Source: a virus. From it: a DNA stretch of 64,000 bases. The position numbers were made by a program, and so were the translations under genes. Below the pieces are notes generated by a model, which worked only from the letters and a program-made list of their open reading frames with translations, did no database searches and was not told the origin of the DNA. Shown in pieces: positions 3,709 to 59,181 of the stretch (the stretch's first letter is position 1; every line of letters begins with the position of its first letter). The stretch lies in IMG/VR virus record IMGVR_UViG_3300019776_000365, positions 1-64,000 of that record. One strand, written 5' to 3'.

Positions 3709-3737
3709 TAATTGAATTTAAACTAAAAAACCAATAT

Positions 3738-3774
3738 GGGGTATATGGGGTTATCTCATATACCCTTTTATTTT
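3738..3774 (+). terminator. intrinsic terminator
   Basis: GGGTATATGGG/CTCATATACCC stem followed by TTTTATTTT. Confidence 0.75.
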
Positions 3775-3784
3775 ATATAAAACT

Positions 3785-4162: not shown

Positions 4163-4204
4163 CAACAATAGTATTGATATACTAGATATAAAAAATTATA
4201 AAAC

Positions 4205-4237
4205 CTTTGTATATGTGAGTTTTTTTACTTATATTGC
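4205..4237 (+). promoter_or_regulatory. putative Bacteroidota-type promoter
   Basis: TTTG, ~19 nt, then TTATATTG, an imperfect match to TTTG/TAnnTTTG. Shares CTTTGTATAT with 11344-11375. Confidence 0.4.
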
Positions 4238-4264
4238 AGAGGTTTTAAATTTTAAACACGTAAC

Positions 4265-24200: not shown

Positions 24201-25756
24201 TTAAAGTAACTACATCTAATGATAGAAATGTTAAATCATTAGCATCAGATATAGTAAAAGAAGTATTCAAGGATGGTAAGAAAGATCAATCTGAGTCTGA
24301 TAAAAATTCAATAGCTGCATGGAGTAACATTAACTCATCTGACGCTCAATCTTGGAGTTCTTTGGAGTTTCACTTAGATACACTTTATAACTTTGGCAAT
24401 AAATTGGTATCAGAAACTGACTATAAAAAACTAAAAGCAAAAATAAAAGAAGCTAGAGATAATAATAAATATAATGAGTTAGATTTTTCTCAGGATGAGC
24501 TATCTATTATATTAAATCCAACTAAGCCGTTATATTCCAACAATAGACAAGTACCACTTGATGGTGATAGTACTATCGGTGTTAGATCATATATAAAAAC
24601 ATCTTCATTTCCATTAATACCACAATTAGTTAAAGGTACTGATCTAGAGCATGTTGTGAATGCAATGGAGAATGGCGGTGTTGATTTGCATGTATTTGAG
24701 TCTGGTTATAAAGTTGGTTCTACAATACATAGCACTGATAGTAAAGCAGATTCTAATAGTAAGCTAGACTTATTTGATAAAGATGGTAATATGCTATATG
24801 ATAATGTAGCTGCCTTATCTGATAGTAAAAATCACATAATACTTGATATAAAAGGTTTTAAAATACAACAAGAAGTTCCATATCATGATCATCCTGGATA
24901 TATCAATAAGGGATCCCAGGAGTCTAAGTTGTTATTCTCAAACATCAGAGCAATAGAAGGCTTTGAATATGATGGTAAAAAAATGAATGGCGCAGAGCTT
25001 GAAAAAATATATAACCAAAAGTATAAAGAGCTATATAGAAAAGAAGCTGAAAAACTTAGAAATGAAGTATTTGTAAAAGATGCTGATGGTAATCCTACTG
25101 GTCAAGTGGACATACATATGATTCAGAAGTTGTTTAGAGAAGCTGCTAATGATAGAAATTATTCTATCAACGATAAGATAGGTTTATCTCTTGATGATAA
25201 AAATGAAGCATTTAAATTTCCACTATGGTGTTTGCCTGCTGCTCACAAATATGAATCACTACTAATATCTATAGTGGATAATAGAGTTAGAAAGCTTAAA
25301 ATACCTGGTAATTCATTTGTATTAGGCTCTGAGGCTGGATTTAGATTTAAAGATCAAATAATAACAGATAAAAAAGACCAACAAAAGATATTTAAAAAAT
25401 ATCAAGACCAAATAATATTTACAAGTAATGCTGTAATAGAAAATGGTGAGATAAATCTTCAAACATATAGAAGAGATGGTAAGAATATGAAGCCTACTCA
25501 GGTATTTATACCATGTAAACTTCAAGGAAAGAATGGTCACTTTATAGACTTAATGAAATATACTATCAAAAAAGATGGTAGATTATATATAGATGAGAAT
25601 AGATTTCCTAAAGAACTCTCAAATATGTTTGGCTTTAGAATACCAACACAAGGGCACAACTCTATGACATCAATAGAAGTGGCTGGATTCTTACCAGAGG
25701 CTTGTGGCGACTTAATTATAGCTACACAAGATTTGGTTGTACAGATGGGATCGGAT
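21287..25756 (+). CDS. virion RNA polymerase polyprotein, exon 1 (TGA=Trp at 22388 and 23687)
   Basis: SDAQS, KVG, KIPG, FRIPTQG and QMGSD motifs of phi14:2 gp66-type two-barrel RNAP. Confidence 0.9.
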
Positions 25757-26027
25757 AAACGTTAATGTCCGAGTAAAATCCTGTGAATTGCTGGAAACCC
25801 CTTAGAGTAATTCAAACTACAACATAGATAGTAATATCAAATGTGAATGTTTAAAAATTGAATTAATTGGGCAATCAGCAGCTAAGTAACTATCCTGTCA
25901 ATTATGATAGTTAAAAGTTCAACGACTAGAGGTGAGCCGACAGAGCAATAAAACCTCAATAGCGCAGGACACCTTAATGGTGATGATATAGTCTAATCTT
26001 TATAGAAATATAAAGCTAATAAAAATG
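25757..26027 (+). mobile_element. ORF-less group I intron (271 nt) in the RNAP catalytic motif
   Basis: P1 TCGGAT/GTCCGA with U-G at the splice site. P10 ACGTTAA/TTGACGT. Core elements AATTGCTGGAAA, AATCAGCAG, TTCAACGACTAG and GATATAGTCTAA. Terminal G. Splicing restores GSD|FDVDKL. Confidence 0.95.
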
Positions 26028-29000: not shown

Positions 29001-31691
29001 GTTTATAAGGCTAAGTCATCTTCTAAAGAACTTAGCGATAAACTTAAAGACATAGAAGCTTGGTGGGCCAACAACAAAACAACTAAACTTACAGAAGAAC
29101 ATAAATTTGCTTATTCATTGAGTGATGATTTTGAGTTTGTCTCAATGGCGCTTACAGATAGTAGTTTTAGGTCAGAGATTGATAAACTAGATTCTATAAG
29201 TGATAATAATAGCACTCTAAAGAAGCTATGAGACGCTTTGCTTAAATTCTTAGGTCTTGATAGTGTATCTAATATAGATAAAACATTTATTGAAAACAAT
29301 ATATTTAATTTTATAGATACTATTGAAACATCTATTAAAGAACCATCAAAAAAGATTGACAAGAAAGAATTTAAAGATAATGAAGAGTATAGAAACTTAT
29401 CCAATATACTTGATGAAATAGAGTCTAAAAAAGAAGTTGAGATAATTAAAGAGCCAGTTAAATATTACGAAGGAAATATAACTCCAGATAAAAATACTAT
29501 ATTTGTTTTTGGTAGTAATCCAGAAGGTCGTCATGGTGCTGGTGCCGCTAAAATAGCGAGAACACAATTTGGCGCTATTTATGGTCAAGGTGAAGGATTG
29601 CAGGGTAATGCATATGCTCTACCAACAAAAGATCTCAGGATTACCGAAAATAAAGGATTTAAATATATATCATTTGATCAAATCGTAGAAAACATTAAAA
29701 AACTATATGAAGTTGCCAAACAAAATCCAGATAAACAATTCAAAATAGCTTATAGAAATACTACGACAACATCTTTAAATGGATATACTGGATTGGAAAT
29801 GATTGAGATGTTTAAAACTGCCGGTGATATTCCATCAAATATTGTATTTAGTAAAGAGTGGATTGAAACTGGCGAATTTAATAAAAAAGAAGAACCAAAA
29901 GTTGAAGAGCAAACAAAACAAGAAGATCCAAAAAGTAAATCATTTTCATATAAAGGTGTATCAATAGACACTGAATTTCAATTAGGTGAAGACCAAGACA
30001 AATCACTTAAAGAGTTAATAGATTTTATTGATGGCTCATCTGACACAGCAATGACACTACAAGGTGCTGCTGGTACTGGCAAAACAGCTACAATTGGTTA
30101 TCTTCAGAAATACTTAAACAAAAAAGGTTATACTCCTTTTGTTTATATGGCTCCAACACATGCAGCAACTGTAGAATTAGCATTTGCTACTGTTAAAACT
30201 GGAAATACATCTATGCCATTTACTGTAGCTAAGGCTGTAAGATATGATAGTCTAAATAAAAAGAATGTATTTACCATGAGAATAAATGAAATTTTATCTT
30301 ATGGTGGTGTTATAGTAGTCGATGAATCTTCAATGCTTGATGATAATGACGTAAATGCTATAATAGAAGCATCTGAAAATATTGGTGTTAAGGTTGTTTT
30401 TATGGGTGATGAGAAGCAGATACCAAAGGTTAGCAAAGAAGGTGGTGATGTAATGTCATTATTTGGTGAAGATTTTGGGACTATTAAAAAAAGAGTATCA
30501 TCTGCTTTTACGAAACTAAAGCAAACAAATCTTAGACAAGTTTTTAGACAATCAGACAATGGATTGCTTGCACTTTTATCTAAAATGAGATCTCAAAATA
30601 ATTTTAAATTATTTAAAGTGAATAACAGAAAGTCTGTAAAATTTGTTGATAGAAGTGAGTATAATAAATTATTAAGGGAAGATATATTAAACGATCCTGA
30701 AAATACTATTGTTATATCATACACAAACGGTTCTGTTCAAGAAGTTAACAAAAATGTTAGATTAATTAGAGGTATGAGTGGTAGTCCAAAAGTGTTTGAT
30801 GTTATCATTGGATATATAGGGTATGCCAATAAAAAGATAGATGCTGGGAATATAGCTAATAGTGTTCAATATACTATTGATACAATACAAAGAGATGGCT
30901 CAGAACTTAGAATTATAGCAAATTCTGATAAACTAAAACAACTAGTTGATTTAGGGATATCTGGTATATCTAAAGTAGCATTTACTAGATATTTGCAGTT
31001 ATCACAAGGTGATAGTCTTTCTATTGATGATATGACAAAAGAAGATTATGACAACAACAATGAAACATTATCTAATATATTTAGATCGGTGCATGAATTA
31101 AATATGGCTTATGACAGAAAACAGATTAAATATTACACATATCTAAATGCATTAGCAGAAAAAACTGCTATTTTAGCTGAATTGTCTGTTGGTGATAGTT
31201 ATATTTATAATCCAAAAATCGATAAAATGGAGCGTTATGATCAAAAGATTCATAAAAACATCAAATCATCTGGTAGTGGGTCTTTGTTGTTTGAGAAGGG
31301 CGTTGATTATGGTCATGCTATAACAATACATAAATCTCAGGGATCTACTATAAACAATGTTTATTTTGACGCAGATTCAATAAATTCAGCTAGAGATACA
31401 AAAATACTTGATGAAAAAGACAATCAAGTCACAACTGAAAAAATGGCTTTAGCTTATGTAGCTATGAGTAGAAGTAAGAATAAACTTGTTGTAAATAAAG
31501 GTAGTCAAGCTTTTGAACAGATAGATGAAAATGAAGTTGAATCATTGCCTGAATTTAACGACTCTAGTTTTTTCGAATTAACAGAGGATGAAAGCAAAAC
31601 TTTAATTAAAAAGCATGGCGACAAAGCTATAGAGATGTATAATAACTTAAATGACGAACAAAAAGAAATAATACTTAAATGTTTAAGATAA
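26028..31691 (+). CDS. virion RNA polymerase polyprotein, exon 2, with zincin, macro-like and SF1 helicase domains (TGA=Trp at 29229; about 3377 aa in total)
   Basis: FDVDKL, SASVDNEK, HEIVH, FVFGSN..GRHGAGAA, GAAGTGKT, DESSM, GD..Q, TIHKSQGS and YVAMSR motifs. Confidence 0.9.
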
Positions 31692-40963: not shown

Positions 40964-41473
40964 TTACTTTTTAACCCAAACTACCAGTTCATCAAAATCT
41001 AAAGACCATTTGTTTTTATTGAAGAATTGCCCACTTAAAATACCGACGATATTAACACCATACGCATTATTTAGTTGTTCAAATGTATTCAAATTTATAA
41101 CATCAAAAGAACATTCTTGCTCTAATACTCCACTAATATTTATGTTGATATAAGTTTCATAAGAATCTACTACAACCTCATGGCCAGTAATCGTGCTTGT
41201 TTTACCAGTGTTTTTTAGTAGATCTTTATGTTTATCACAAAACGATCTACTAATACAATTATCGCTAGCACCGCTGTCTAAAAGCATATAAACATCTTCG
41301 CCAAATATAGTTGCTTTAATAATTGGCAGCTTTGTAATATTGAAATTATCTTTAAAGCAAATTGAATACTTATTTTGTTTTTTTATCTTATTACTAAGAT
41401 CTTTAATTATTAAATATACACCAATTGCACATCCAATAATTAGCCCTGAAATATATACATATCCTAAAATCAT
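40964..41473 (-). CDS. membrane-anchored retropepsin-like aspartic protease
   Basis: N-terminal TM helix, LLDSGAS, GILSG.FF. Confidence 0.85.
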   Translation of the reverse strand: MILGYVYISGLIIGCAIGVYLIIKDLSNKIKKQNKYSICFKDNFNITKLPIIKATIFGEDVYMLLDSGASDNCISRSFCDKHKDLLKNTGKTSTITGHEVVVDSYETYININISGVLEQECSFDVINLNTFEQLNNAYGVNIVGILSGQFFNKNKWSLDFDELVVWVKK

Positions 41474-42945: not shown

Positions 42946-43830
42946 TTAAAATATTTCTGGGCATTTATCTTTTATCTGCTGTGTACAAAAATACGATAAC
43001 CGTTTAAAATCGATTATAGGGTTTTTAAATTCTTTAATGAAATTCCAACACTCCTCTTTTACAAGACAATAAAAAACAGTATTTATTAATCGTGGAATAA
43101 ATTTAGAACTCCAATCTCCGTTATTATCGTTTTCAATTTTTGACTTTTCTTTGTCAATAAGTGCTTTTGTAATATATTTTTTACAAATTTCTTCCTCAAT
43201 AATTTTAGCTTCTTTTATTTCAGTTATTTGCACTTTTTGATGTCTTGCTTTAAAATCATTGGTTACAATTTTAGCCCATATTTGATTTCCAAATCTATTT
43301 TTATAGTCGTAGTTTTTTATAACAATTCCTTCTCCGACCCCATTGCCATCTTTAATTAAATATCCATTTTTATCTAATTGATTTATGAGTCTTTCATATG
43401 TTGGATTTTCAATTTTGCATATTGGAGGAATATATTCAATATCAAATTCATCAAGTAACTCTTTATATTCTTCGTATGGTAAATATTCATTTTCATTCAT
43501 TACATCAAAAGCATAAAACTTTCTCCAAGCTGAATCTTCATACGTCTTTAAAGAGTGTGGTACTAACCACTCTCCATATAATCGCAAATTAGGATATTTG
43601 CAGAAAAACAAATTGATATTATCTTGCTCTAAAACCCATTTATAAAAACCGGCATTGTCATATTCCAATGAAAGTTTTCTGTTTCTAGAGCCAGCCATTA
43701 GTATGTTATTTTTCCAAATCTGCGCATTTGTTCCATCGATTTTTGGGAAAATATAGCATATGCCATTTTCTATTCCATTTGTTTCAGTAGTGCCAAATCT
43801 CTCTACGTGTTGATATTTTAAAAAATCCAT
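42946..43830 (-). CDS. ATP-dependent RNA ligase (Rnl2-like)
   Basis: KIDGTN, GSR, YGEW, FDV, EGIVIK and AKIV motifs. Confidence 0.85.
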   Translation of the reverse strand: MDFLKYQHVERFGTTETNGIENGICYIFPKIDGTNAQIWKNNILMAGSRNRKLSLEYDNAGFYKWVLEQDNINLFFCKYPNLRLYGEWLVPHSLKTYEDSAWRKFYAFDVMNENEYLPYEEYKELLDEFDIEYIPPICKIENPTYERLINQLDKNGYLIKDGNGVGEGIVIKNYDYKNRFGNQIWAKIVTNDFKARHQKVQITEIKEAKIIEEEICKKYITKALIDKEKSKIENDNNGDWSSKFIPRLINTVFYCLVKEECWNFIKEFKNPIIDFKRLSYFCTQQIKDKCPEIF

Positions 43831-45736: not shown

Positions 45737-46417
45737 TTAAATTTCAATTTTAATAGGCCCATGTTTTTCCAAACAATCACAAAATAGTACTTCTGCATTT
45801 TTGGTTGTATGTTGTTTTGGCTTATCTACTGGTGTATGTCCTACTATTTGCTTAAATCCTTGCAATGGCTTTTTAAGTTCTTGCCTATCACACCAGAATA
45901 TACCACCTACATTACATCTCATACCACCCCTTAAATAACCTACATCATGTAGGGTGATTTCTTGCCATTTATCTTTTGGCTTATTTAATTGGTCTGCAAT
46001 ATTCTTATCTATATCACCTTTATATCTTTCTACAAACCAATTGTGCTGAATCCCCGCATGAGTAAAAATTACGTCTTCTATTTGATAAGCGTTTTGAAAT
46101 AAATTCTTATTTGGATGTAAAATATCATAAATATCGTATTGTATTTCAGGTCTTAGGCCACTACATTTAAATTCATTTGTATGCGGATATAAATAATTAA
46201 ATTCATGATTACCGTAAAGTAATACAACTTTATCTAAATTGTCTAACTTAAATTGTATAATATCTTTTAAGTTATTTATCATTTGCTCATTGCTATAAAT
46301 ATATGAATCAACATAATCACCTAAAAAGACAATTTTATCACAACTTAGATCAATATATTTCTTCCATATATCAGAGCAATGAATATCGCCAAAAACTTGT
46401 GTATTTATTTTACTCAC
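45737..46417 (-). CDS. calcineurin-like metallophosphoesterase
   Basis: GDIH, GDYVD, GNHE, HAG and GHT motifs. Confidence 0.9.
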   Translation of the reverse strand: MSKINTQVFGDIHCSDIWKKYIDLSCDKIVFLGDYVDSYIYSNEQMINNLKDIIQFKLDNLDKVVLLYGNHEFNYLYPHTNEFKCSGLRPEIQYDIYDILHPNKNLFQNAYQIEDVIFTHAGIQHNWFVERYKGDIDKNIADQLNKPKDKWQEITLHDVGYLRGGMRCNVGGIFWCDRQELKKPLQGFKQIVGHTPVDKPKQHTTKNAEVLFCDCLEKHGPIKIEI

Positions 46418-47681: not shown

Positions 47682-47940
47682 ATTCGTTTAAAATAAAATT
47701 ATTCTCACCTTCATAATAGAAATTTACATCATTAACCAATGATTTCATTGACATGAGATTGCAATATCTTTCTGTCATTTCTTCAGGATTGCATTTTTTA
47801 TACTCTTTTTTAATCTCAGATTCTACAATCTCACTTATACTTTGGAAATCTCTTTTATCAATAAATCTATTTACAATGATGTTATCTTTAAATGATAGAT
47901 TATTAATAGAATATTCTTTTAGCTTATCTAGCTTTTTCAT
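47671..47940 (-). CDS. hypothetical protein
   Basis: 89-aa ORF overlapping both neighbours. Confidence 0.6.
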   Translation of the reverse strand: MKKLDKLKEYSINNLSFKDNIIVNRFIDKRDFQSISEIVESEIKKEYKKCNPEEMTERYCNLMSMKSLVNDVNFYYEGENNFILNEYDI

Positions 47941-48340
47941 TTTCTTTTATTATTTCTATTGCTTTTAAGATTGCTTGTTCTTTGGTATGATCTAAATTGT
48001 CATAAAATTTATTCCTAAATTTACCCCTTGAATCAAATCCTGAATCAATCATATCTAAATTTCTAACAGTAAAATACATTCTTCGAATTTTTCCAAATAT
48101 ATCTAAATGATCAAATTCGATATTAATAATAATAAGATGTTTTTCTCTGAACCAATCAATTACTTGTTGCCAAAGAGGTGCATCAATAATATAATCATTT
48201 GACTCCACAATATTTGAGTGTGAATAATTCGTTTTATTAAACTTTTTATTTTCTATATAATAAAGTCCCATACATGGTTCATTAAAACATAATTCTTTCA
48301 GCTTCAATGCTATTTCATAAGTTACAAATTGCTCCTTCAT
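47924..48340 (-). CDS. MKEQ-family hypothetical protein, copy 1
   Basis: MKEQFVTYEIALKLKEL...APLWQQVIDWFREKH...AILKAIEII. Confidence 0.75.
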   Translation of the reverse strand: MKEQFVTYEIALKLKELCFNEPCMGLYYIENKKFNKTNYSHSNIVESNDYIIDAPLWQQVIDWFREKHLIIINIEFDHLDIFGKIRRMYFTVRNLDMIDSGFDSRGKFRNKFYDNLDHTKEQAILKAIEIIKENEKAR

Positions 48341-48346
48341 TTATTT

Positions 48347-48538
48347 TTACTTTTTAATTTCATTAAACATACTATTTAAATCGTCTAGGTTGTACTCGAA
48401 ATCATCAACCAATGATTGTATAGACTCAACTATTTGATCTCCATCAAAGCCATTATATAAATACTTATTACACTCTGATTTGATTGAAGCAATTCTTAAC
48501 TTAAGCTCTTCAACTATAGAATTAAATGATCTTTTCAT
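48347..48538 (-). CDS. hypothetical protein
   Basis: 63-aa ORF. Confidence 0.5.
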   Translation of the reverse strand: MKRSFNSIVEELKLRIASIKSECNKYLYNGFDGDQIVESIQSLVDDFEYNLDDLNSMFNEIKK

Positions 48539-48942
48539 TATTGTTTGTTTTTAATGATTTCTATTGCTTTTAGAATTGCAGCTTCACGGGCTTCTTCATA
48601 TGAATCAATTAATTCATCAGTAGCGCCTAAATCGATTTCGTTGCATAGAATACCATATAGCTCTTCAGAGTCTTCAACTATCGAATAATACCAGCATAAT
48701 TCAATATTATCTTCATTATTTCTATATGGCAGTATTGCAGTATATATCGAATGTTTTTCTCTAAACCAATCTATAGTTTGCTGCCAAAGCGGAGCTTTTA
48801 TTACCGGGATATCTTTAGAGCTATAAACAGAATCGCTAGTAATTAATAAGTCACCACACACAAATACACCTAAGCATTCTTCATCAAACTCTAATTTTTT
48901 TAAAGCTAGAGCAATTCTATAACTTACAAATTGTTCTTTCAT
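48538..48942 (-). CDS. MKEQ-family hypothetical protein, copy 2
   Basis: MKEQFVSYRIALALKKL...APLWQQTIDWFREKH...AILKAIEII. Confidence 0.75.
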   Translation of the reverse strand: MKEQFVSYRIALALKKLEFDEECLGVFVCGDLLITSDSVYSSKDIPVIKAPLWQQTIDWFREKHSIYTAILPYRNNEDNIELCWYYSIVEDSEELYGILCNEIDLGATDELIDSYEEAREAAILKAIEIIKNKQ

Positions 48943-49397
48943 TATTTTAGTGATTTAATTATATCAATACACTCATTTATATGTTTTTGACTATGAGGCT
49001 CTAAAAACACTGGTTTTTCTGGTAATAGTGGGTAATTGTCTTCAATCCATTTAATGAACATCTTCCTTACTAATGGATATGTATCATTACCTCTACCTTT
49101 ACATTCCACAAAGATAACATAATTATCTTTCCTAACAACAAAATCTGGTGTATAAACTTTCTTTTGTGCATTTTTACGCTCTTTTAACGTCTTGGTATCT
49201 ACACCAGTGTCATTTGGTCTTACTACCAATGCTTCGACTATATCATATTTGGGTATTAATTCAAAAGACTCTTTGTTATAAGTGAAGGAGAGATTACTCT
49301 CCTTCAACTTTTTATAACAATATAGCTCTAATTTACTATCAAAATTAACACCATCAAAGCTTACTTTTGTTGCATTTCTTACTTTTTTATTTATCAT
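48942..49397 (-). CDS. PD-(D/E)XK endonuclease (DUF1064/resolvase-like)
   Basis: DGVNFDSKLE, YTPDF, VECKG. Confidence 0.8.
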   Translation of the reverse strand: MINKKVRNATKVSFDGVNFDSKLELYCYKKLKESNLSFTYNKESFELIPKYDIVEALVVRPNDTGVDTKTLKERKNAQKKVYTPDFVVRKDNYVIFVECKGRGNDTYPLVRKMFIKWIEDNYPLLPEKPVFLEPHSQKHINECIDIIKSLK

Positions 49398-49719
49398 TAG
49401 TTTTTATTAAATTAAGTCCAACAACCAATGCTGCTTCTAGTGCATCTTCATATGAATCGAATATTTTTTGCTCATTTATATAGCCGTAAATCCACCCATA
49501 AGAGTTTATAAACGCAACATATTTACCTTTTATTCCAGCGGTATCTACCAATAGATTAACATCATGCACTTCTCTCAACCATTTTTGCAATAAAGATTGG
49601 GTTGGATTTAAATTGTCACAGATGCATTCTGGAAATCCACCACATTTACATACTTTAATATCAAGCCCCTTCTCTTTAGCTAATTCAGCTGTTTCAAAAC
49701 TTATTAATTGTTCCTTCAT
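49387..49719 (-). CDS. MKEQ-family hypothetical protein, copy 3 (divergent)
   Basis: MKEQLISFETAELAKEKG...PTQSLLQKWLREVH...YEDALEAAL. Confidence 0.7.
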   Translation of the reverse strand: MKEQLISFETAELAKEKGLDIKVCKCGGFPECICDNLNPTQSLLQKWLREVHDVNLLVDTAGIKGKYVAFINSYGWIYGYINEQKIFDSYEDALEAALVVGLNLIKTNDK

Positions 49720-49720
49720 A

Positions 49721-51139
49721 TTAATACAGTATTAATGGCGTTTTAAATATTTGTTTTGAGTCTTCTATTAGATCAAAATATCCATAGTTATCATTAAATA
49801 GATTGTTGCATCTAGTAAAATAAGTAGATCTTTCATTTATATAATCTAATAAATAAACAGATTCTTGCCCATTTGTTACAAGAATAATGTCTTCTAACGA
49901 TGTTTTAACTCCTTGCTTATACTCAACCTCTTCTGCATATTTTAAAATACTCATGCAAATAAACAACCAGTTAATAATTTTATATTTATTCAAAGTAGCA
50001 TTATGCATTCTAAATTCAACAGTTTTACCGCCATTACCAAACAACAAATTGATAAAATTAATTGCATAATATCTGCGATTTATCTCCCATTTGCGATTTC
50101 TATCTGGATCTGATGGGTGAGGGTCATAAAATCCATTGAATTCAAAACCATCTTCTCCAGATAAATATTCATACAGCTTATCAAATTCTTCAAATTGAAG
50201 ATCATCTGGCAATCTTTTGCAGTAATCCTTACCATGGCTTTTATATTCAGCGGTGTTAAAAATAGATCTTGGCATAATTGAAGATAAATCATCTTGAATG
50301 TCCACTAGAATATTATAAAGATTCATAATTTTACACTTATCTAATGGGAATCCACCTAAATGCAAATGCACCGAGCATTCTTTGTCAATAAGACATTTAT
50401 CATTAAGCTCGTCCAATTGGTTTAATAATAGATTTACACCATCTTTACCTTGCATTGGAATAGTTGTATACTCATGGCCATTAATAGAGCCATCCCTAAG
50501 TGGAATCAACCCTAATTGTTTGCATGTAAACTCTGGAATTAACCCACTAGATGTCTCAAACTCAAAGCCAAATGAATATTTATCTAGCAAATCAAACCAA
50601 TTATTATAATCGAACTTAGCTTTTGTATATTTAGAATTGTTAATATCTTTAAATAAACTTATAATCTTATCAGAATTATACACCCTTTCAAAAGAATAAT
50701 AATATTTATTATGGTAGGTTTTTCTTGATAAGTCATACCCAGAATACATTGCAGCTTTATAGTCAAAATACTCGCCCCTATTGCCAATATAAATCTTTGG
50801 AATAGAATCAAACACATTCATATTTATAACAGAAACATTTCCATTTCCATATGTTTGTATTTTAATATCAATTGATTTATCTTTCTCAAATCTACCAAAT
50901 ACATATTTATTATAGTCTTGTTTATATTCAACAATACCTATAGTTGTATTCTCTGTAGTCTTTAAATATCTTTGCAGTTCATTGTTGAAATAAATTTTTG
51001 GATTACCTTTTCTATACCACTTGCCATCAATATTAAAACAGTCAACATTCTTTTCAAAGAAATAATCGCCAATTTTAATACAGTCTTTTCTTAAAACCTC
51101 TTTACCTGATATTGTTGTTACAAAATTTACTTGTGCCAT
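49721..51139 (-). CDS. putative amidoligase (COOH-NH2 ligase fold)
   Basis: FGFEFET, DGSI..HEY, CSVHLH, RYYAINF and TVEFR motifs. Confidence 0.85.
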   Translation of the reverse strand: MAQVNFVTTISGKEVLRKDCIKIGDYFFEKNVDCFNIDGKWYRKGNPKIYFNNELQRYLKTTENTTIGIVEYKQDYNKYVFGRFEKDKSIDIKIQTYGNGNVSVINMNVFDSIPKIYIGNRGEYFDYKAAMYSGYDLSRKTYHNKYYYSFERVYNSDKIISLFKDINNSKYTKAKFDYNNWFDLLDKYSFGFEFETSSGLIPEFTCKQLGLIPLRDGSINGHEYTTIPMQGKDGVNLLLNQLDELNDKCLIDKECSVHLHLGGFPLDKCKIMNLYNILVDIQDDLSSIMPRSIFNTAEYKSHGKDYCKRLPDDLQFEEFDKLYEYLSGEDGFEFNGFYDPHPSDPDRNRKWEINRRYYAINFINLLFGNGGKTVEFRMHNATLNKYKIINWLFICMSILKYAEEVEYKQGVKTSLEDIILVTNGQESVYLLDYINERSTYFTRCNNLFNDNYGYFDLIEDSKQIFKTPLILY

Positions 51140-51162
51140 TTTATTATTTGTAATTTAATTAA

Positions 51163-52626
51163 TTATAGAAATCTTACTATCTCATCTGCTATCATTTCTT
51201 CTAGCATTTCATCGCTAATCATACCCATTCTAATTCTAGAGTCAAGTAAAAGTGAATCTTTAGTTTGCTCATAAGATGGAATTCCAGCAGTTTTAAATTT
51301 ATTAAACTCTGTAATTTCACCATTACTGTTGCATTTATAAATCTCTTTGTCTAATGTGAAATATACCTGAAAAACACCACAGAATGGTAATATTGATTTA
51401 GTTGATGTATCAAAATGGTACATCTGATAGTCATTAGCACTGATTTCAAATGGTACTGGATGTACAGCAAATGGAGCTAAAAACACATCAATAAAATCAT
51501 CGTCAGATTCTTGCTCTAATGCACTAATATATGCGTTTGCGCATAAATAGTCAAAATAGCTTTTAATCATAACTCCATCAATAAAGTAATAAGTAGATCC
51601 ATAGGTTTCTGAATTAATTTCGTAACCACTATTGCTTAGCTTATACTCACCATTAGCTTTTTTATTATTAATGTAATAATACCCATCTGAAGATATTCCC
51701 ATTTTTTTATTAACAAAAAGCTTTTGAGCTCGTATTTTATTTACAAATTCTTTCTCTGTTGGCTGGTTTGTACTGTGTTTGCTATTATAATACCCACCAT
51801 AATCATAATCATCATAATCTTCATAAGAACCAAATGGCAGATATCTTTGACCAACAGTGCTTTTATAAGACAATTGTTTTGTTTGTTTTCTTTTAGATCT
51901 ATCAATCTCTATTGTAGATTCAATATTACCGTTTTTAATTTTATAAAGAGTGTTACACTCCATGTCAACAATAGTATCATTGTCGTCCATTATGAATTCT
52001 AATGAGTTTTCCATTGATGAAAACCAAAATGAATTCTTATGATTAATAAAATATAACGGTCTTTCTTCATATAGTTTATCATCATTTTTATAAAACAATG
52101 ACGCACCCTTGAAGATAAATACTGTATTTAGATCTACACGACTATCCCAAAAAACAAAAGCACCAGCACCTTCATATTCTGATAATACCTTAAAGCCAGC
52201 TTTATAAACTATTTTACAAAATATTTGAGAGTCAGTTTCGTGATTGCTATATGCAACATCATATGTATTTGCAAGTTCTTCATAGTTAATTAAAGTGCCA
52301 TTATGAATCATAGCAAATACAGGCTTGTCGTTCTCATATATAACCACTGGTTGAGCTTGTTGTAGTCCTATAGCGCCTACTGATGCTTTTCTACAATGAC
52401 CTAGAGCTATTGTTGGTTTACCTATTTTTGCATCAATAAATAAACCATTTTCTACAAAATCTTTGAATTTTTTGTTTTTATCAGCACCATAAGCTACATC
52501 TGTTTTTAATTTACCGTGATGAAACACCCCACATGAATCACCACCTCTAGCGTCATTGTACAACCCTAATACTTTGAATTTATTTTTATCGTAATTTGTT
52601 CCAATATGTCCAAAAATTCCACACAT
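51163..52626 (-). CDS. class II (Ntn) glutamine amidotransferase
   Basis: MCGIFG, RGGDSCG, GHCRKAS, HNGTL, ETDS. Confidence 0.92.
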   Translation of the reverse strand: MCGIFGHIGTNYDKNKFKVLGLYNDARGGDSCGVFHHGKLKTDVAYGADKNKKFKDFVENGLFIDAKIGKPTIALGHCRKASVGAIGLQQAQPVVIYENDKPVFAMIHNGTLINYEELANTYDVAYSNHETDSQIFCKIVYKAGFKVLSEYEGAGAFVFWDSRVDLNTVFIFKGASLFYKNDDKLYEERPLYFINHKNSFWFSSMENSLEFIMDDNDTIVDMECNTLYKIKNGNIESTIEIDRSKRKQTKQLSYKSTVGQRYLPFGSYEDYDDYDYGGYYNSKHSTNQPTEKEFVNKIRAQKLFVNKKMGISSDGYYYINNKKANGEYKLSNSGYEINSETYGSTYYFIDGVMIKSYFDYLCANAYISALEQESDDDFIDVFLAPFAVHPVPFEISANDYQMYHFDTSTKSILPFCGVFQVYFTLDKEIYKCNSNGEITEFNKFKTAGIPSYEQTKDSLLLDSRIRMGMISDEMLEEMIADEIVRFL

Positions 52627-52663
52627 AAGTTAATTGTTGTTAATTTATAATACTTAATAGTTT

Positions 52664-52700
52664 AAAAAAAAAGAAACGCCTAGTTTTTACGCTAGGCGTT
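52664..52700 (-). terminator. intrinsic terminator inside the amidoligase cluster
   Basis: AACGCCTAG/CTAGGCGTT stem followed on the - strand by TC and 9 T. Confidence 0.8.
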
Positions 52701-52707
52701 ATTGCAA

Positions 52708-53526
52708 TTACATAATAGCTTCTTCTTGATAGATTTTGAATTTACTTATAATTGATTTAGCTAAATCCCTATCACCAGTATTAATACACTGAATAATATC
52801 GTTTTTAGCTTCATTAATGGCATCGAGTCCAAACTCATTAAGATATTCAATAGCCATTAAAGTTCTGTCTAACGACCATTTAAACAGTTCTCTTGAGCTG
52901 ATAAAATGACCAGAAAGAACTCTATATTCGCATCCGAATGGAGTTAGCCTGAAGCATCCAGCCTTACCATACAATCTACGTCTATTCATGTCACCATCAA
53001 GAAGCGCAGATGGCACCCCAACGAATAAATCCATTGCTTTAATTAGGTTTAAAGATGCATTTGGGTTAAAATCATCATATCCAACATGGATGTGACATCC
53101 CGCCGATCTAAGGTTTGTATTTTGACCGTTCGGCTTTTCGTTTTTGTTTGCAGTCCATGCATTATAGTCTGGATCACAACCGAACATTTTAGATTCATCT
53201 GATTGTAGCTGGTCATCAGCAAACACACCAGAAGCCGCATATACTGGTTTTAAATTAAATGAGCTAAGATATTCAGTAATATACGATTTCATTAGCTCTA
53301 CATTATCCGCCACAACTGATGGGCTACTATGTGGTGGTACATTAAACTCACCTAACACATTATCTACCTGAATTGCATATCCTTTGCCTAGTGATAATAT
53401 GTGAGATGGTTCATCTTTAGTTCCTTGAATAATACCAATAGAACTAATTAGTTTGCCATTATTGTCTGAAATGAAAAACTCTGGATCTGTGCCTAATGTT
53501 ACGTTTTTATATTGAAATGGTTTCAT
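52708..53526 (-). CDS. phiEco32-like COOH-NH2 ligase type 2
   Basis: LGTDPEFF, DNV..EFN, FGCDPDYNAW, RSAG.HIH.G, RRRLYGKAG.FR, EYR.LS. Confidence 0.92.
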   Translation of the reverse strand: MKPFQYKNVTLGTDPEFFISDNNGKLISSIGIIQGTKDEPSHILSLGKGYAIQVDNVLGEFNVPPHSSPSVVADNVELMKSYITEYLSSFNLKPVYAASGVFADDQLQSDESKMFGCDPDYNAWTANKNEKPNGQNTNLRSAGCHIHVGYDDFNPNASLNLIKAMDLFVGVPSALLDGDMNRRRLYGKAGCFRLTPFGCEYRVLSGHFISSRELFKWSLDRTLMAIEYLNEFGLDAINEAKNDIIQCINTGDRDLAKSIISKFKIYQEEAIM

Positions 53527-53560
53527 TTTATTTTATTTTAATAATTAATAAATAACTGTT

Positions 53561-53746
53561 TTAAATTCTTCCACCAATAATATCGCCATTATTTCTTACA
53601 GCTATATATAATTGATCTGGAATAAAAGCATTTTCCCATATTGGATCTATACCCATTGGTTGTCCTTGTAATTTAATATGTTTTCTAACATTTCCCAAGG
53701 CAGCCATCATTTTCTCTGCGTCAAATTTTACATCTTTTACTTCCAC
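53561..53746 (-). CDS. small hypothetical protein in the amidoligase cluster
   Basis: 61-aa ORF overlapping the upstream gene end. Confidence 0.5.
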   Translation of the reverse strand: MEVKDVKFDAEKMMAALGNVRKHIKLQGQPMGIDPIWENAFIPDQLYIAVRNNGDIIGGRI

Positions 53747-54423
53747 TTCTTTTTGTGGTTTAGCTGGCTTTTAGGCTGTTCTTTTTTAACCACATCATCA
53801 AGAAGTTCATTTACCAACATATTGATAAACTTAACAGCTTCTGACTTTTTAGGCATATATTCAGGATGACCTTGAATACACAAGCAATTTGTTTTATTAT
53901 AATAAACAATCTCTGGTTCTACGAAATTATCCGGCAATTTTTTCTCGTTATCCCATCCATCTAAATATGTTTTAGATAGATTTTTTGAAGATTTTGCAAT
54001 AATCGTATAGTCAGATGGATTCATATCAAATGGATACATCATTTGATGATGTGTACTAGTGATATTAAATTTAATATTAGCACCCAACACTTCAATTTCG
54101 TGGTCGCCATTGCAATGCCCAGTAGTGTGTTGCACTAATTTACCCCCAGATTTAGCTGTGCAAAATTGACTTCCACGGCATATTCCAACTATTATTTTCC
54201 CCAAATTAACAGCTTTTTCAAATTCTTCAATTTCATGAAGATCTCTAGATGTGTTATAATACGTTTGTTTACCTTTTGGTTCGTCATATAATGATGGATG
54301 TACATCTTCTCCGCCTGTAAATATAACTAAATCAGCCAACTCCATGTCGTCAACCAATTCAAATTTACATGTTAGAAAATTAGCATAATTTGTTGCACCA
54401 CTTACTACATATACTTTTATCAT
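53737..54423 (-). CDS. class I glutamine amidotransferase / peptidase C26-like
   Basis: FTGGEDV.P..Y, GICRGSQ, STHHQ, QGHPE. Confidence 0.9.
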   Translation of the reverse strand: MIKVYVVSGATNYANFLTCKFELVDDMELADLVIFTGGEDVHPSLYDEPKGKQTYYNTSRDLHEIEEFEKAVNLGKIIVGICRGSQFCTAKSGGKLVQHTTGHCNGDHEIEVLGANIKFNITSTHHQMMYPFDMNPSDYTIIAKSSKNLSKTYLDGWDNEKKLPDNFVEPEIVYYNKTNCLCIQGHPEYMPKKSEAVKFINMLVNELLDDVVKKEQPKSQLNHKKKWK

Positions 54424-55187
54424 AATCCAATAATTTTTTTATTATTTTTTAATAGTTTTAATGTCTTTTTATCTATTGTGTTTGTTTTCATTAAATCTAC
54501 AAACTGGTCGCTTTCTTCATAGTCACGAAACACCTCAAGTTTACCTCTATAGCTATCATCTAGTTGAATAGATTTTCCCACTTTATTAACATCCTTGTCG
54601 TTTATATTCTTGATTATATCTATATCAGTAATTGTTGATTTCGCTCCAAAAGAAGTGCATTCGTGAATACCTGAATTAAAACCTGGCATAATACTATTAG
54701 CCAATACGTATCTTTTAGATAAACTCAATCTTTTAAATCCACAGGTATTTTTCATAGCAAAAGCAAGTTTAACTGGGGCTAATACTTTCATCTCATATAG
54801 ATTCCTAACCATAGTTAATGCTAGTTTAATCTTATAATGAGACATATTCTCAAAATCAGAATGTACCACTATGAATTTACCATGAACACCATCACTAGGA
54901 AAATTATCTTTAATTTCAAATTTGAATTTAGTTAATTTAGTTACCCATTGTAGATATTCTTTTATTTCGTCCATAGTTAATGGGCAATAGTTGTTTAGAT
55001 TTTCATCTAAATCACTTTCATCTAATCTAACTAAAACCCCAAAATAACCATTATTGTTTTTTGGTTTAAAAGAATCACCCCCACTAAACGCTCTACTAAA
55101 ACATGCTGAATTTACAAATATTTTTTCTTCACCACCATTTACTTTGTAGTAATATGTAGTTGAATATGACAGAAATTTAATATTCAT
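54420..55187 (-). CDS. hypothetical protein in the amidoligase cluster
   Basis: 255-aa ORF coupled to both neighbours. Confidence 0.7.
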   Translation of the reverse strand: MNIKFLSYSTTYYYKVNGGEEKIFVNSACFSRAFSGGDSFKPKNNNGYFGVLVRLDESDLDENLNNYCPLTMDEIKEYLQWVTKLTKFKFEIKDNFPSDGVHGKFIVVHSDFENMSHYKIKLALTMVRNLYEMKVLAPVKLAFAMKNTCGFKRLSLSKRYVLANSIMPGFNSGIHECTSFGAKSTITDIDIIKNINDKDVNKVGKSIQLDDSYRGKLEVFRDYEESDQFVDLMKTNTIDKKTLKLLKNNKKIIGL

Positions 55188-55189
55188 CT

Positions 55190-55966
55190 TTAAACCATTT
55201 TTTTAAGTTGTTCAATATATTTTTCTAATGTTATATCTCCAAGTGAGCTTGCGGAGTTTGTTTCTAAAATAATAAAGTAAGGTTCAAAATCATCTTTTTT
55301 GTTTTTTTCTGTTTGAACCTTAACATCACATGAGCAAATATCTAAACCTACCGCTTGCATAGCTTTAACGCATTCTTCAACTATTTTATCCCAGTTTTTA
55401 GGTTTTTCAAATAAATCATTGTCTTCAAGAATCCATACTGAATTCATGTCGTGTCTATGCCATCTAACTTCTGCATCATTTTTAAGCATTTTACGACATG
55501 TGTAAAAGCAACCATCTTTAGTTACGTGCAAACGATACTCTTTAGTGCAATTATAATATTTTTCAATAATATAATTTCCTACATTATGATTAGCTACAAA
55601 TTCAGATAATTTTTCTTGATTTTCTATATAGAAAATACCATTACCTTTTGAGCTATTCTTATGTTTGATGATTGCTGGGAATATATCCCAATTAAATTCA
55701 GCATTATTGAAATATAATGGAGACCATTCTGCTGACTTTATTTTATGATAATCAAACCATCCCTTCATTATAATCTTATCACCACTTTTTGCACAAGCTT
55801 CTGCTGTGTTTATCTCACGAATTGGCTTACCTAACTTAACTCCTTTTGGGAATATCTTTTCAGTTGGTGTTGTTGAGCCCATTCGTAATACAGTTCTAAC
55901 ATCGCAATCTATTAGATTCTTCAGTGGCTTTGCTGAGTAATTTCTACTTCTAATTTGTAATTTCAT
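55190..55966 (-). CDS. ATP-grasp peptide ligase (RimK-like)
   Basis: DK..MK, FPAIIK...SSKGNGI, EKY...EYRLHV, GLDI...DV, ETNSA. Start placed at ATG 55966. Confidence 0.88.
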   Translation of the reverse strand: MKLQIRSRNYSAKPLKNLIDCDVRTVLRMGSTTPTEKIFPKGVKLGKPIREINTAEACAKSGDKIIMKGWFDYHKIKSAEWSPLYFNNAEFNWDIFPAIIKHKNSSKGNGIFYIENQEKLSEFVANHNVGNYIIEKYYNCTKEYRLHVTKDGCFYTCRKMLKNDAEVRWHRHDMNSVWILEDNDLFEKPKNWDKIVEECVKAMQAVGLDICSCDVKVQTEKNKKDDFEPYFIILETNSASSLGDITLEKYIEQLKKMV

Positions 55967-55974
55967 TTTATCAT

Positions 55975-56003
55975 AAAAATAAAGGGCTATATTTCTATAG
56001 CCC
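55975..56003 (-). terminator. terminator-like hairpin just upstream of the ATP-grasp gene
   Basis: GGGCTATA/TATAGCCC stem followed on the - strand by TTTATTTTT. Confidence 0.7.
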
Positions 56004-56014
56004 AATTAATAATT

Positions 56015-56233
56015 TCAATACAATTCTTTAACTTTGTTATATACTAGATTAGCTAAATCCTTTGTAGATAACCTCATATACATACCAAATTGGTTACAAC
56101 CTTTGGCTGCATTTGTTGATTTTATGATCCAATACAATTCCCATCTGCTAAGAGATGAAAATCTTCTAGCACTTAAATTAGAAAGAAATGGAAATCTTTG
56201 AATTAACTTATTAAACAAAACTGCTTTTTTCAT
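56015..56233 (-). CDS. hypothetical protein (TGA stop)
   Basis: 72-aa ORF. Confidence 0.55.
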   Translation of the reverse strand: MKKAVLFNKLIQRFPFLSNLSARRFSSLSRWELYWIIKSTNAAKGCNQFGMYMRLSTKDLANLVYNKVKELY

Positions 56234-56235
56234 AA

Positions 56236-57243
56236 TTATTTTATTAAATTAAAAATTGTTTCTTTGAATATCTTTTCACCATGATTTCTATAAAGATCAA
56301 ATGAATCTTTTGATAGTAATTTAGTTGGTATTTCTATTTGAGGTAACTTAAACTCATTTGCTATTTTAGCACCATAAATTCTACCGTGATTTTCATCTTT
56401 ATCAAAATCATTGTCATATAATACAAAAATGTTTTTAAATCTACTTTTTAGTTCATCTACTACTTGTTTTTTAGGAAATCCACTTTCTGACTGTAATGAT
56501 GTGCATGGTATCCCAGCATGTTTCCATATAGTTAATGCGTCTTTTCTTGATTTGGTTATAATCAACACATCACCAGTAGATGGTAGCTGCTGCCATAAGT
56601 CCCATACGCCATCCTTGTGAGATGTAAGCCATTTAAAACACTTGCTGTATGGTTGATATGTCTTTATAGTTTGAATATTATCCTTAGCTTCTAAATAAGC
56701 ATACGCCAATCTATCCGCTGGTATAATTGATTCTTTTAAATCACCAAATCTATCTATTCTTTTATAGAATATATGAGTTATTGGATATACATTGCCAAAT
56801 CTAAGAAAATCCTCATCTAAACCACCTTGCATCCAAAACTCATTGTCATAGCTTCTGAATTTTCTAATTTTAACATTAAGTTCTACGTTTGAACTATATA
56901 CTTTGTGTTGTGATTTTTGCTTTTTGATTTTATCTGGTTTTTCATCTAATGATTCTATGATATCTTTATGAATTTTCTCAACACACGATTGAAATGGAAG
57001 CTTCCATGTTTTAATAAAAATATCAATTAATCCGCCATACTCGTCTGTGCTAAAATCATGAAATATTATTCTATTAGATGAATTGTAGTATAGCCCAAAG
57101 GAAGGACTTTTATCCTCCCTAAATGGGCTATTGATTACAACAGGTATTCTATCTATATCAAAGTAAAAAGACAATATATCAAATTCTGTTTTGTAGTCAA
57201 ATATATCACTTAATGATATTGTTTTACTTCCTTTAGATATCAT
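56236..57243 (-). CDS. DnaG-type DNA primase (TOPRIM)
   Basis: SPFREDKSPSF, DF...G, ITKSRKDA, LYDND. Confidence 0.88.
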   Translation of the reverse strand: MISKGSKTISLSDIFDYKTEFDILSFYFDIDRIPVVINSPFREDKSPSFGLYYNSSNRIIFHDFSTDEYGGLIDIFIKTWKLPFQSCVEKIHKDIIESLDEKPDKIKKQKSQHKVYSSNVELNVKIRKFRSYDNEFWMQGGLDEDFLRFGNVYPITHIFYKRIDRFGDLKESIIPADRLAYAYLEAKDNIQTIKTYQPYSKCFKWLTSHKDGVWDLWQQLPSTGDVLIITKSRKDALTIWKHAGIPCTSLQSESGFPKKQVVDELKSRFKNIFVLYDNDFDKDENHGRIYGAKIANEFKLPQIEIPTKLLSKDSFDLYRNHGEKIFKETIFNLIK

Positions 57244-58394: not shown

Positions 58395-59181
58395 TTATTG
58401 ATAAATATATTGATCAATGTAATCTCTGTTTTGTGTAAAAATTGGAATTTCTGTGTCAATAAACCATTTATTTCTAACAACACCATTTGCTTCAATTTCT
58501 TTTTTAATAACACAAGAGCCTCTTTTATAATGTGTTTTAAAATCGTTAAAATTGATATCTTTTTCTATAAAAAGTTTTTCTTGAATTTGATTACAATTTT
58601 TATTTTCTAAACTTTTATGTGAAAAATTAGTTCTCCCAACCATTTGGATTGCATTTCTTGTTGCATCTTGTTGTCTCCAAATAAAACAATTACAAACTTC
58701 TTCTTTTGGTAAATTAAATACACGTGAATCGAATACAGCTTTATTAAATCTGTTTAACATAGTGTTTTTTTTAAGTTTATCATCTAATTCATTATTGTCA
58801 ATACAATTATTCACGTTTTCAATAAAATACTTATTGAAAGCTAATGTCGCTAATGAAGCTGAAATAGAACACATTTTTTTTTGGATGTTTTTTATCAAAC
58901 CAAGATTGGGTTGTGATATTTTCATAATCAGTTAGAACTAATGTTATTTCATCTGATTGTGTATAAGCAATTTTACAACTTTGGATATTTTCACAAAGGA
59001 ACTTTGCTGTTTCTTGCATTGTTTTAATTAAAACATCGTCAAATGGTTTTTTAAACCCTCTTGTGAATGTGTGAAATGCTTTACCATCCAATCTTATAAT
59101 TGTTGGACTTCTTCTCATTAGAAAACGTCTTTCGATATTTTCATACTGTTTCATCCTATCGCCTAAACTATCTTTTTTCAT
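58395..59181 (-). CDS. Thg1-like tRNA(His) guanylyltransferase / 3'-5' polymerase, frameshifted at about 58890
   Basis: LGDRMK.YE, RLDGKAFHTFT and YTQSDEI in one frame; QK.CSISAS, FDSR.F, WRQQDA.RN and KRG in another. Confidence 0.88.

Follow-up and report, generated by a model that had tools for sequence, protein, structure and literature searches.

A phiEco32-Type Amide-Ligation Cassette in the Replication Module of a crAss-like Phage

Introduction

Podoviruses of the phiEco32, LUZ24-PaP3-tf, RIO-1 and CW02 types carry an amidoligase cassette that has been labeled a "peptidoglycan modification" cassette (PMC5498523). In its phiEco32/LUZ24-type form, this set combines a COOH-NH2 ligase type 2 (PF14395), an Amidoligase_2 protein (PF12224) encoded next to a class II glutamine amidotransferase (class II GATase, GAT-II), a RimK-like ATP-grasp ligase and a gamma-glutamyl-cleaving enzyme, with all genes pointing in one direction beside a primase gene. 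Its description is reportedly owed to Iyer et al. in 2009 and Hardies et al. in 2013, and it ranks among the most widespread phage enzyme sets for which no product is known. Here we describe a locus of this kind at positions 49721–55966 of a 64,000-nucleotide stretch of viral DNA (the window: positions 1–64,000 of IMG/VR record IMGVR_UViG_3300019776_000365). The source genome is a complete virus record of 90,821 bp with direct terminal repeats; among sequencing runs, one DNA data set contains it, an aquatic metagenome from which it was probably assembled, and no RNA data set is listed. An initial annotation, made from the sequence of the window, had described the locus as a complete phiEco32-like peptide-ligation cluster in a crAss-like phage.

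Results

Gene Content and Synteny

All seven open reading frames (ORFs) of the locus were confirmed on the minus strand, and reading TGA as Trp or TAG as Gln leaves the gene calls of the cassette unchanged. Profile searches against Pfam, PHROGs and NCBIfam assign five of the products to enzyme families, and the kind of chemistry follows from these predicted families: three ATP-dependent carboxylate-amine ligases (ATP-grasp ligase, COOH-NH2 ligase type 2 and Amidoligase_2), one Ntn glutaminase domain (GAT-II) and one gamma-glutamyl-cleaving enzyme, a class I GATase of the peptidase C26 type (C26). The genes are part of a tight, co-directional string that runs from the primase gene to an endonuclease gene. 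They lie beside the primase inside the replication module, which continues beyond the endonuclease with exonuclease, metallophosphoesterase, ribonucleotide reductase (RNR), RNA ligase and dUTPase genes. The cluster had been annotated as contiguous between primase and endonuclease; these flanks are correct, but the cassette does not fill the whole interval, since a 72-residue and a 110-residue ORF intervene (Table 1).

The replication module also places the phage in the Crassvirales. Its gene order and sequence identities match those of cr108_1 (NC_055878), an uncultured crAss-like phage, and of the Cellulophaga phage phi14:2 (NC_021806), both members of the Steigviridae (Asinivirinae); judged from the predicted genes, the module is syntenic with those of Steigviridae crAss-like phages. 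Both relatives carry the cassette in the same position as the window (gp028–gp034 in cr108_1, g037–g041 in phi14:2), which is after the primase and ahead of endonuclease/uracil-DNA glycosylase (UDG), exonuclease and RNR genes. The shared order is ATP-grasp ligase, accessory gene, C26, COOH-NH2 ligase, GAT-II and amidoligase. Identities with the cr108_1 proteins amount to 57% for the ATP-grasp ligase, 48% for C26, 46% for the COOH-NH2 ligase, 39% for the amidoligase and 35% for GAT-II, with 46% for the primase. Together, the domain matches and the synteny with Steigviridae bear out the initial assignment of a phiEco32-type amide-ligation cassette to a crAss-like phage.

Catalytic Residues and Family Assignments

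In all five enzymes the catalytic residues are intact and invariant across homologues. The ATP-grasp protein matches phrog_2599 (RimK-like ATP-grasp family) at 1e-25 and gives a run of weak, consistent matches to ATP-grasp models of NCBIfam (Ddl, cyanophycin synthetase, RimK, PurK); it has no Pfam match at E ≤ 0.01 and no match among PDB sequences. An alignment of 10 homologues shows no variation in the Gly-rich loop, the E-x-N metal motif or other residues typical of ATP-grasp enzymes. Against the RimK model TIGR00768 the protein scores 17.8 bits, well short of the family cut-off of 143.4, and we therefore predict an ATP-grasp ligase that is not a RimK. A mechanical ORF call extends the gene to a TTG codon at 56005. 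Since a hairpin (56003–55984; minimum free energy, MFE, of the segment −12.9 kcal/mol) falls within this extension and the cr108_1 homologue has 252 residues, the ATG at 55966 is the likelier start, as in the initial annotation.

The C26 protein matches PF07722 at 6e-17 (62.6 bits against a cut-off of 20.5), PF00117 (GATase) at 2e-7 and phrog_7218 at 4e-36, and its triad of C82 (in G-I-C-R-G), H186 and E188 is invariant in 7 homologues. The COOH-NH2 ligase matches PF14395 at 6e-9 (36 bits against a cut-off of 25) and, across its full length, phrog_3815 at 1e-67. Homologues of this ligase occur in 314 phage records. E16, E60, H145, H147, E200 and R202 are invariant in an alignment of 11 homologues. 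Its score of 16.4 bits against glutamate-cysteine ligase family 2 (YbdK-type, NF010045; cut-off 395) lies below the family level, and the predicted relation to GCS2 (YbdK-type) is one of superfamily only.

GAT-II begins with MCGIFG and matches PF13522 (GATase_6) at 5e-13 (49.6 bits against a cut-off of 27). The nucleophile Cys2 and the glutamine-site residues R79, N109-G110 and D132 are those of a class II enzyme; C2, R27, H77, R79, N109, G110 and D132 are invariant in homologues. The protein consists of an Ntn domain (residues 1–245), a disordered Tyr/Asp-rich linker (about 252–286) and a conserved C-terminal domain (290–487). An AlphaFold (AF2) model (pLDDT 84) matched GlmS/PurF in Foldseek at 1e-11, and the Ntn domain of the model gave VIA Z scores of 23.3 with PurF, 22.9 with GlmS and 19.8 with EgtC, with AsnB within 19–23. 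This domain resembles amidotransferases as well as the gamma-glutamyl hydrolase EgtC. The C-terminal domain has no match in Pfam or NCBIfam and no usable Atlas match; fold searches with the whole model returned lists taken up by matches to the Ntn domain. Finally, the amidoligase matches PF12224 at 1e-10 (residues 238–398; 42 bits against a cut-off of 22) and phrog_2443 at 1e-26, and E193, E195, E223, H258, H260, E375 and R377 are invariant in 31 sequences. It carries a conserved N-terminal domain of about 190 residues that belongs to no known family.

Conservation of the Cassette

A scan with the ATP-grasp alignment yielded 80 metagenome loci, whose ORFs were classed with purpose-built profiles. 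In 27 of them the ATP-grasp gene is well flanked, with at least 3 kb upstream and at least 7 kb downstream. These 27 loci, among them near-identical gut phage genomes, hold a GAT-II–amidoligase pair in every case, C26 in 26, the COOH-NH2 ligase in 24, a relative of the 255-residue protein in 20 and gamma-glutamyl cyclotransferase (GGCT, AIG2-type) in 13. Neither of the two findings that would have spoken against the initial annotation, degenerate catalytic residues or a lack of co-conservation, was obtained: the genes are strongly co-conserved, and the core is kept across ten different layouts; the dominant order is primase, GGCT (where present), ATP-grasp ligase, 255-residue family, C26, COOH-NH2 ligase, GAT-II and amidoligase. 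None of the cassette proteins has a hydrophobic segment (maximum KD19 1.35); because of this, and because three of the proteins need ATP, the chemistry of the cassette would be cytoplasmic.

The cluster is, contrary to its first description, not complete by the canonical definition, because no GGCT (PF06094) is encoded anywhere in the 90.8-kb genome. The nearest relatives (ATP-grasp ligases 58–61% identical) carry GGCT upstream of the ATP-grasp gene, with Pfam confirmation by PF06094 at about 1e-17 to 1e-19 (loci L016, L018 and L025). In L018 and L025 the GGCT gene comes after a homologue of the 72-residue ORF (HMM matches at E = 3.5e-5 and 1.5e-8, respectively; L021 also matches). In the present genome C26 probably covers the role of GGCT. 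The window has C26 only, phi14:2 has GGCT only and many loci have both, and one or the other is present in 26 of the 27 well-flanked loci.

To cyclise a glutamyl residue, GGCT needs a free alpha-amino group on it. Since lineages swap GGCT and C26, the substrate shared by the two enzymes would most likely be an N-terminal gamma-glutamyl amide. A product with such a free-amino gamma-glutamyl group would suit a small soluble intermediate more than the peptidoglycan stem peptide itself.

The 61-residue ORF, which had been counted as a component of the cluster, does not hold up as one. It has no match in Pfam, PHROGs or NCBIfam and no homologue in the 80 related loci, and the nearest relatives leave no room for it, their C26 gene touching or overlapping the COOH-NH2 ligase gene. 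It may be a small gene peculiar to this lineage, or an ORF that arose by chance in the 210-nt spacer.

The 255-Residue Protein Family

The 255-residue protein has no match in Pfam or PHROGs and none by tblastn in the phage collection; a word-indexed search returned only the protein itself, and Atlas scores stayed below the usable level. An exhaustive HMMER search retrieved 47 representative relatives of about 250 residues each, in which C29, R128 and E132 are invariant, F30, N66, Y131 and H175 are nearly so, and the C-termini vary. The cr108_1 proteins gp029 and gp030, encoded between the ATP-grasp and C26 genes, also belong to the family (E = 4e-21 and 2e-14). Because its members adjoin the ATP-grasp gene in 20 of the 27 well-flanked loci, the family is specific to the cassette.

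An AF2 model of the protein (pLDDT 83) found no PDB match in Foldseek at E ≤ 0.001, and a profile search of PDB sequences with the family alignment found nothing. VIA-wide comparison of the model gave a best Z of 6.5 (KH tandem), which is within the noise range. A degenerate glutamine-synthetase (GS)/guanido-kinase fold is not supported, the VIA-wide Z scores of 5.1–5.7 with phosphagen kinases being within noise. Comparison of the family with the two ligase families by hhalign was also negative, at low power (a ligase-versus-ligase control failed as well, bar the H-x-H-x-G motif).

The significant Foldseek matches of the model in BFVD were the two cr108_1 proteins and two proteins of another crAss-like virus (ctelJ1). 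Weaker matches (E = 0.004–0.34) were uncharacterised proteins of 284–503 residues from Aeromonas, PaP4, GAP52, tf and CW02 phages; three of these phages (PaP4, tf and CW02) are listed as carrying the cassette, and GAP52 is a phiEco32-like phage. Judged by organism and length, the entries PaP4_021 (319 residues, E = 1e-2) and tf_18 (307 residues, E = 0.15) would be products of the LUZ24 gp15-type genes that directly precede the COOH-NH2 ligase gene. A Cys-Phe/Tyr-Gly/Ser/Ala motif near residue 30 is common to the 255-residue family, the PaP4 and tf proteins, LUZ24 gp14 and ECBP2 0086/0087, and occurs at that position in 4 of 715 unrelated ORFs (0.56%). HMM and hhalign comparisons of the family with gp15-type proteins were negative, the hhalign test again having low power. 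Homology of the family to the LUZ24 gp14/gp15-type proteins is plausible but unproven.

Layout within the Cassette

The GAT-II and amidoligase genes are 23 nt apart. A complex prediction for their products scored 0.27, which is below the mark and was counted as evidence neither way. Upstream of this pair, the 81-nt gap after the COOH-NH2 ligase gene contains a hairpin with a 9-bp stem followed by a U run (52700–52675; MFE −13.3 kcal/mol), and a weaker hairpin with a U run occurs at the same junction in L021 and L025. The GAT-II–amidoligase pair also occurs alone in other phage groups (PMC10580990, PMC9348578). On account of these junction hairpins and the stand-alone pairs, the gene arrangement suggests a cassette laid out in two parts.

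Table 1. Features of the cassette and its flanks in the window
Feature	Coordinates	Strand	Family or remark
Primase	56236–57243	−	cassette flank
72-residue ORF	56015–56233	−	between primase and cassette; HMM matches in L018, L021 and L025
Terminator-like hairpin	55984–56003	−	between 72-residue ORF and ATP-grasp start codon; consensus scan and MFE
ATP-grasp carboxylate-amine ligase, 258 residues from ATG 55966	55190–55966	−	phrog_2599
255-residue protein (fam255)	54420–55187	−	cassette-linked family by HMMER
Class I GATase/peptidase C26-type gamma-glutamyl hydrolase, 228 residues	53737–54423	−	PF07722, PF00117, phrog_7218
61-residue ORF, GTG start, doubtful gene	53561–53746	−	no family match
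COOH-NH2 ligase type 2 (GCS2/glutamine-synthetase-like fold), 272 residues	52708–53526	−	PF14395, phrog_3815
Terminator-like hairpin	52675–52700	−	COOH-NH2 ligase/class II GATase gap; consensus scan
Class II (Ntn) glutamine amidotransferase (GAT-II), 487 residues	51163–52626	−	PF13522 (GATase_6)
Amidoligase_2 (glutamine-synthetase-like ligase), 472 residues	49721–51139	−	PF12224, phrog_2443
110-residue Cys-cluster protein	49387–49719	−	phrog_12005
RusA/Holliday-junction-resolvase-like endonuclease	48942–49397	−	cassette flank

Neighboring Genes and Other Observations

Directly downstream of the amidoligase gene lies the gene for a 110-residue protein that matches phrog_12005 at 4e-21 and contains a C-x-C-x5-C-x-C cluster. 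Paralogue-like neighbors are encoded on the minus strand at 47924–48340 and 48538–48942. Homologues occur inside or beside the cassette in L008, L010, L016, L033, L070 and L080, and the one in L010 sits between the COOH-NH2 ligase and GAT-II. The protein could be an accessory of the cassette or the product of a mobile small gene.

Contigs L050, L051, L053, L055 and L058, of 120–197 kb, carry the cassette including the 255-residue family with no primase detected within 9 kb; L058 comes from a human gut metagenome. Provided that the contigs are not chimeras, the cassette is not confined to crAss-like genomes of about 90–105 kb. The Leptolyngbya phage Lbo-JY46 (L012; PP438436, 1–12307) has a crAss-type cassette with three C26 paralogues, GGCT and an ATP-grasp ligase extended by about 230 residues. 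Its cassette directly follows genes annotated as PncB and PrsA, which we take to resemble a two-gene phage pathway of NAD+ reconstitution.

Elsewhere in the window, the plus-strand ORFs at 23858–25765 and 26025–29231 match consecutive parts of the giant virion-protein profile phrog_16227 (positions 2744–3222 and 3399–4298 of 4401), which suggests a single very large gene that is interrupted under translation table 11. At 24% identity, Flavobacterium phages (Fipvunavirus) give the best phage matches of this giant protein. On the minus strand, a 169-residue ORF (40964–41473) gives weak matches to retroviral-type aspartyl proteases (PF13975 and PF13650, about 6e-5, at or below the cut-offs), and a 176-residue ORF (58395–58925) gives faint matches to the N- and C-terminal domains of tRNA-His guanylyltransferase (Thg1; E about 5e-3, below the cut-offs). 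An RNA ligase gene (42946–43830) lies in the same module as the Thg1-like ORF, as does a gene for a calcineurin-like metallophosphoesterase (45737–46417, minus strand). A paper on OM43 phages lists replication modules in which this metallophosphoesterase family accompanies amidoligase and GATase (PMC10580990).

Discussion

What may these enzymes make? In our judgment, chances are about even that this crAss-like (Steigviridae-type) phiEco32/LUZ24 cassette encodes co-transcribed, soluble, cytoplasmic enzymes that build, amidate and trim a small gamma-glutamyl amide or short peptide. The cassette would be expressed with the replication genes and would act on an acceptor of low molecular weight. 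First, one of the two GS-fold ligases, either the COOH-NH2 ligase type 2 or Amidoligase_2, would activate a carboxylate as an acyl phosphate and join it to an amine, most likely in a gamma-glutamyl-X bond. The ATP-grasp ligase and the second GS-fold ligase would then add further amide bonds. GAT-II has two possible parts in the third step: it could supply ammonia from glutamine to the neighboring amidoligase, which as the synthase would amidate a carboxylate, or it could hydrolyse gamma-glutamyl amides in the manner of EgtC. Finally, the C26 hydrolase, or GGCT in other lineages, would take off a gamma-glutamyl group whose amino end is free. Until then this group would have been a temporary handle or a protecting group, a use known from the Puu, butirosin and ergothioneine pathways. 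The Cys-motif 255-residue protein would be a lineage-typical accessory. The analysis shows the enzyme families, their intact catalytic residues and the linkage of the genes, whereas the sequence of reactions, the acceptor and what the phage gains are inferred. That C26 and GGCT replace one another constrains the chemistry to a gamma-glutamyl group whose amino end is free.

Several points weigh against this reading. The equivalog scores for RimK, GCS2 and GlmS/AsnB in NCBIfam are far below their cut-offs, which limits the assignments to the superfamily level, and for this reason substrate specificity is not readable from homology. The C-terminal domain of GAT-II, the N-terminal domain of the amidoligase and the 255-residue protein are unexplained. 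Since the 27 well-flanked loci include near-identical genomes, their counts overstate the number of independent observations. Papers published from 2012 to 2025 give hypotheses or indirect evidence for the cassette, and no product (PMC3517423, PMC5498523, PMC10580990, PMC10945688, PMC11706807).

The initial annotation had offered modification of the host envelope or its peptidoglycan precursors, protein tagging and a small anti-defence metabolite as functions, and nothing found here favors any of them. These options restate a hypothesis of 2009, as quoted in PMC10580990 and PMC5498523.

We regard it as unlikely that the ligases and the amidotransferase alter the stem peptides of cytoplasmic UDP-MurNAc-peptide or lipid II, by extra or amidated residues or by unusual linkages, so that a changed wall excludes superinfecting phages. 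This proposal is said to go back to Iyer 2009 and Hardies 2013. Stem peptides do hold a gamma-D-glutamyl bond and carboxylates that are amidated by relatives of class II GATases, the enzymes of the cassette would reside in the cytoplasm, where the precursors are made, and the hosts seen so far (Bacteroidota, Pseudomonadota and a cyanobacterium) are all diderm with similar stem peptides. It is also the reading in print, as a "peptidoglycan modification cassette" (PMC5498523; PMC10580990, citing Iyer 2009). However, Pfam and NCBIfam searches find no domain related to Mur ligases, transpeptidases or lipid carriers in the cassette, and the D-isoglutamate of the stem peptide lacks the free alpha-amino group that GGCT requires. 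An amidoligase–GAT-II pair is moreover reported from viruses assigned, by host prediction only, to marine archaea that have no wall (PMC11706807), and the benefit of a remodeled wall to a lytic phage is unclear.

RimK acts on ribosomal protein S6, and PafA tags its target proteins. By analogy, the ATP-grasp and GS-fold ligases might modify a protein of the host or the phage with tails of the glutamate type or with residues in amide linkage, and C26 might trim or remove them. The ATP-grasp gene is RimK-like in PHROGs, and the GS-fold ligases include the protein ligase PafA (PMC7947786). We nevertheless consider such tagging quite improbable: at 17.8 bits the ATP-grasp protein is far under the RimK subfamily cut-off of 143, and no conserved small substrate protein was found among the candidates at hand. 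The 61-residue ORF is unique to this genome among the 80 loci, the 72-residue ORF is not conserved in cr108_1 and has no acidic tail, and the C-termini of the 255-residue family are variable.

There is a slim chance that the Cys-motif proteins are an unrecognised core part of the cassette, namely a Cys-dependent carrier or catalytic partner on which the amide would be put together, in a protein-templated, non-ribosomal amide assembly line of a kind new to phages whose product would serve in the contest between phage and host. These proteins would comprise the 255-residue family with the two cr108_1 copies, and possibly LUZ24 gp14/gp15 and the phiEco32-type 0086/0087.

Slimmer still is the chance that the genes are auxiliary metabolic genes that shift host pools of glutamate, glutamine or glutathione-type compounds toward nucleotide and protein synthesis of the phage, with no dedicated product. 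The cassette does lie among genes of nucleotide metabolism (RNR, dUTPase, exonuclease), its enzymes are like those of glutathione synthesis and turnover (GCS-like ligase, ATP-grasp, GGCT/C26), and a paper from 2024 ascribes, indirectly, nitrogen-source growth effects to a phage with these genes (PMC10945688). Yet three different ligases, together with cassette-specific accessory proteins that are conserved as one block, suggest a pathway of its own more than a balancing of pools, and none of the enzymes reaches the equivalog level with a housekeeping enzyme.

Least probable of all is a hypermodification that protects phage DNA, with the ligases coupling a group of the amino-acid type to bases or nucleotides or amidating these: the cassette sits by the primase in the replication modules of crAss-like phages and LUZ24, and amino-acid-bearing bases are known from other phages, but the minus-strand ORFs searched include no hydroxymethylase, base-exchange transglycosylase, kinase or other known hypermodification enzyme, and we know of no DNA hypermodification pathway that uses this enzyme set.

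Comparison with Known Systems

Set against the phiEco32/LUZ24-type cassette, the locus has the PF14395 ligase, the PF12224 amidoligase with its GATase, the ATP-grasp ligase and the position in the replication module; what it lacks is GGCT. The podovirus sets compared here have GGCT and no recognisable C26, whereas the window has C26 and no GGCT. The enzyme set recurs in other gene orders in LUZ24, in the phiEco32-like phage ECBP2 and in Lbo-JY46; in LUZ24 the order is gp14, gp15, ligase, gp17, amidoligase, GAT-II, ATP-grasp ligase and GGCT. The crAss-type amidoligase differs from the podovirus version by its extra N-terminal domain, and sequence identity between the two types of cassette is only 24–35%.

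Among the crAss-like relatives, cr108_1 differs from the window in having two paralogues of the 255-residue family and no 61-residue ORF. In phi14:2 GGCT is present, C26 and the 255-residue family are missing and GAT-II is about 150 residues longer. The window in turn stands apart by a single member of the 255-residue family, C26 without GGCT, and a terminator-like hairpin ahead of the cassette with another ahead of GAT-II.

The closest described chemistry is that of pathways which install a gamma-glutamyl group and later remove it. PuuA/PuuD (putrescine), BtrJ/BtrG (butirosin) and EgtA/EgtC (ergothioneine) are pairs of a ligase and a remover that act on such a group. In these pathways, and in synthesis by GshA/GshB with GGCT-type turnover, a GS-fold or ATP-grasp ligase forms a gamma-glutamyl amide from which C26, GGCT or an Ntn enzyme removes the glutamate. 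All three types of remover occur in the cassette family of the window. The likeness is one of logic only, the window proteins being below family-level similarity, and the cassette has no accompanying oxidase, decarboxylase or carrier protein. A second parallel is the synthesis of N-acetylglutaminylglutamine amide (Ngg and AsnO), in which an ATP-grasp ligase makes a dipeptide that a class II GATase amidates. The GAT-II of the window matches the amidotransferase family of this system, TIGR03104, weakly (1e-6, 27 bits against a cut-off of 570); it lacks the asparagine-synthetase-type synthase domain, and the window cassette includes no acetyltransferase.

A literature search returned no paper with both "crAss-like" and "amidoligase", and crAss-like copies are annotated in public records. 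The locus is another copy of a cassette known from sequence since 2009, ordinary except for its 255-residue partner family, and by itself it leaves existing knowledge unchanged. Since phi14:2 has a culturable Cellulophaga host, and LUZ24 and phiEco32 grow on laboratory strains, the question of the product is directly testable. What the comparison adds to the known cassettes is modest: a quantified crAss-type architecture, the interchange of C26 and GGCT, the loss of GGCT, the non-conservation of the 61-residue ORF and an accessory family with a Cys motif.

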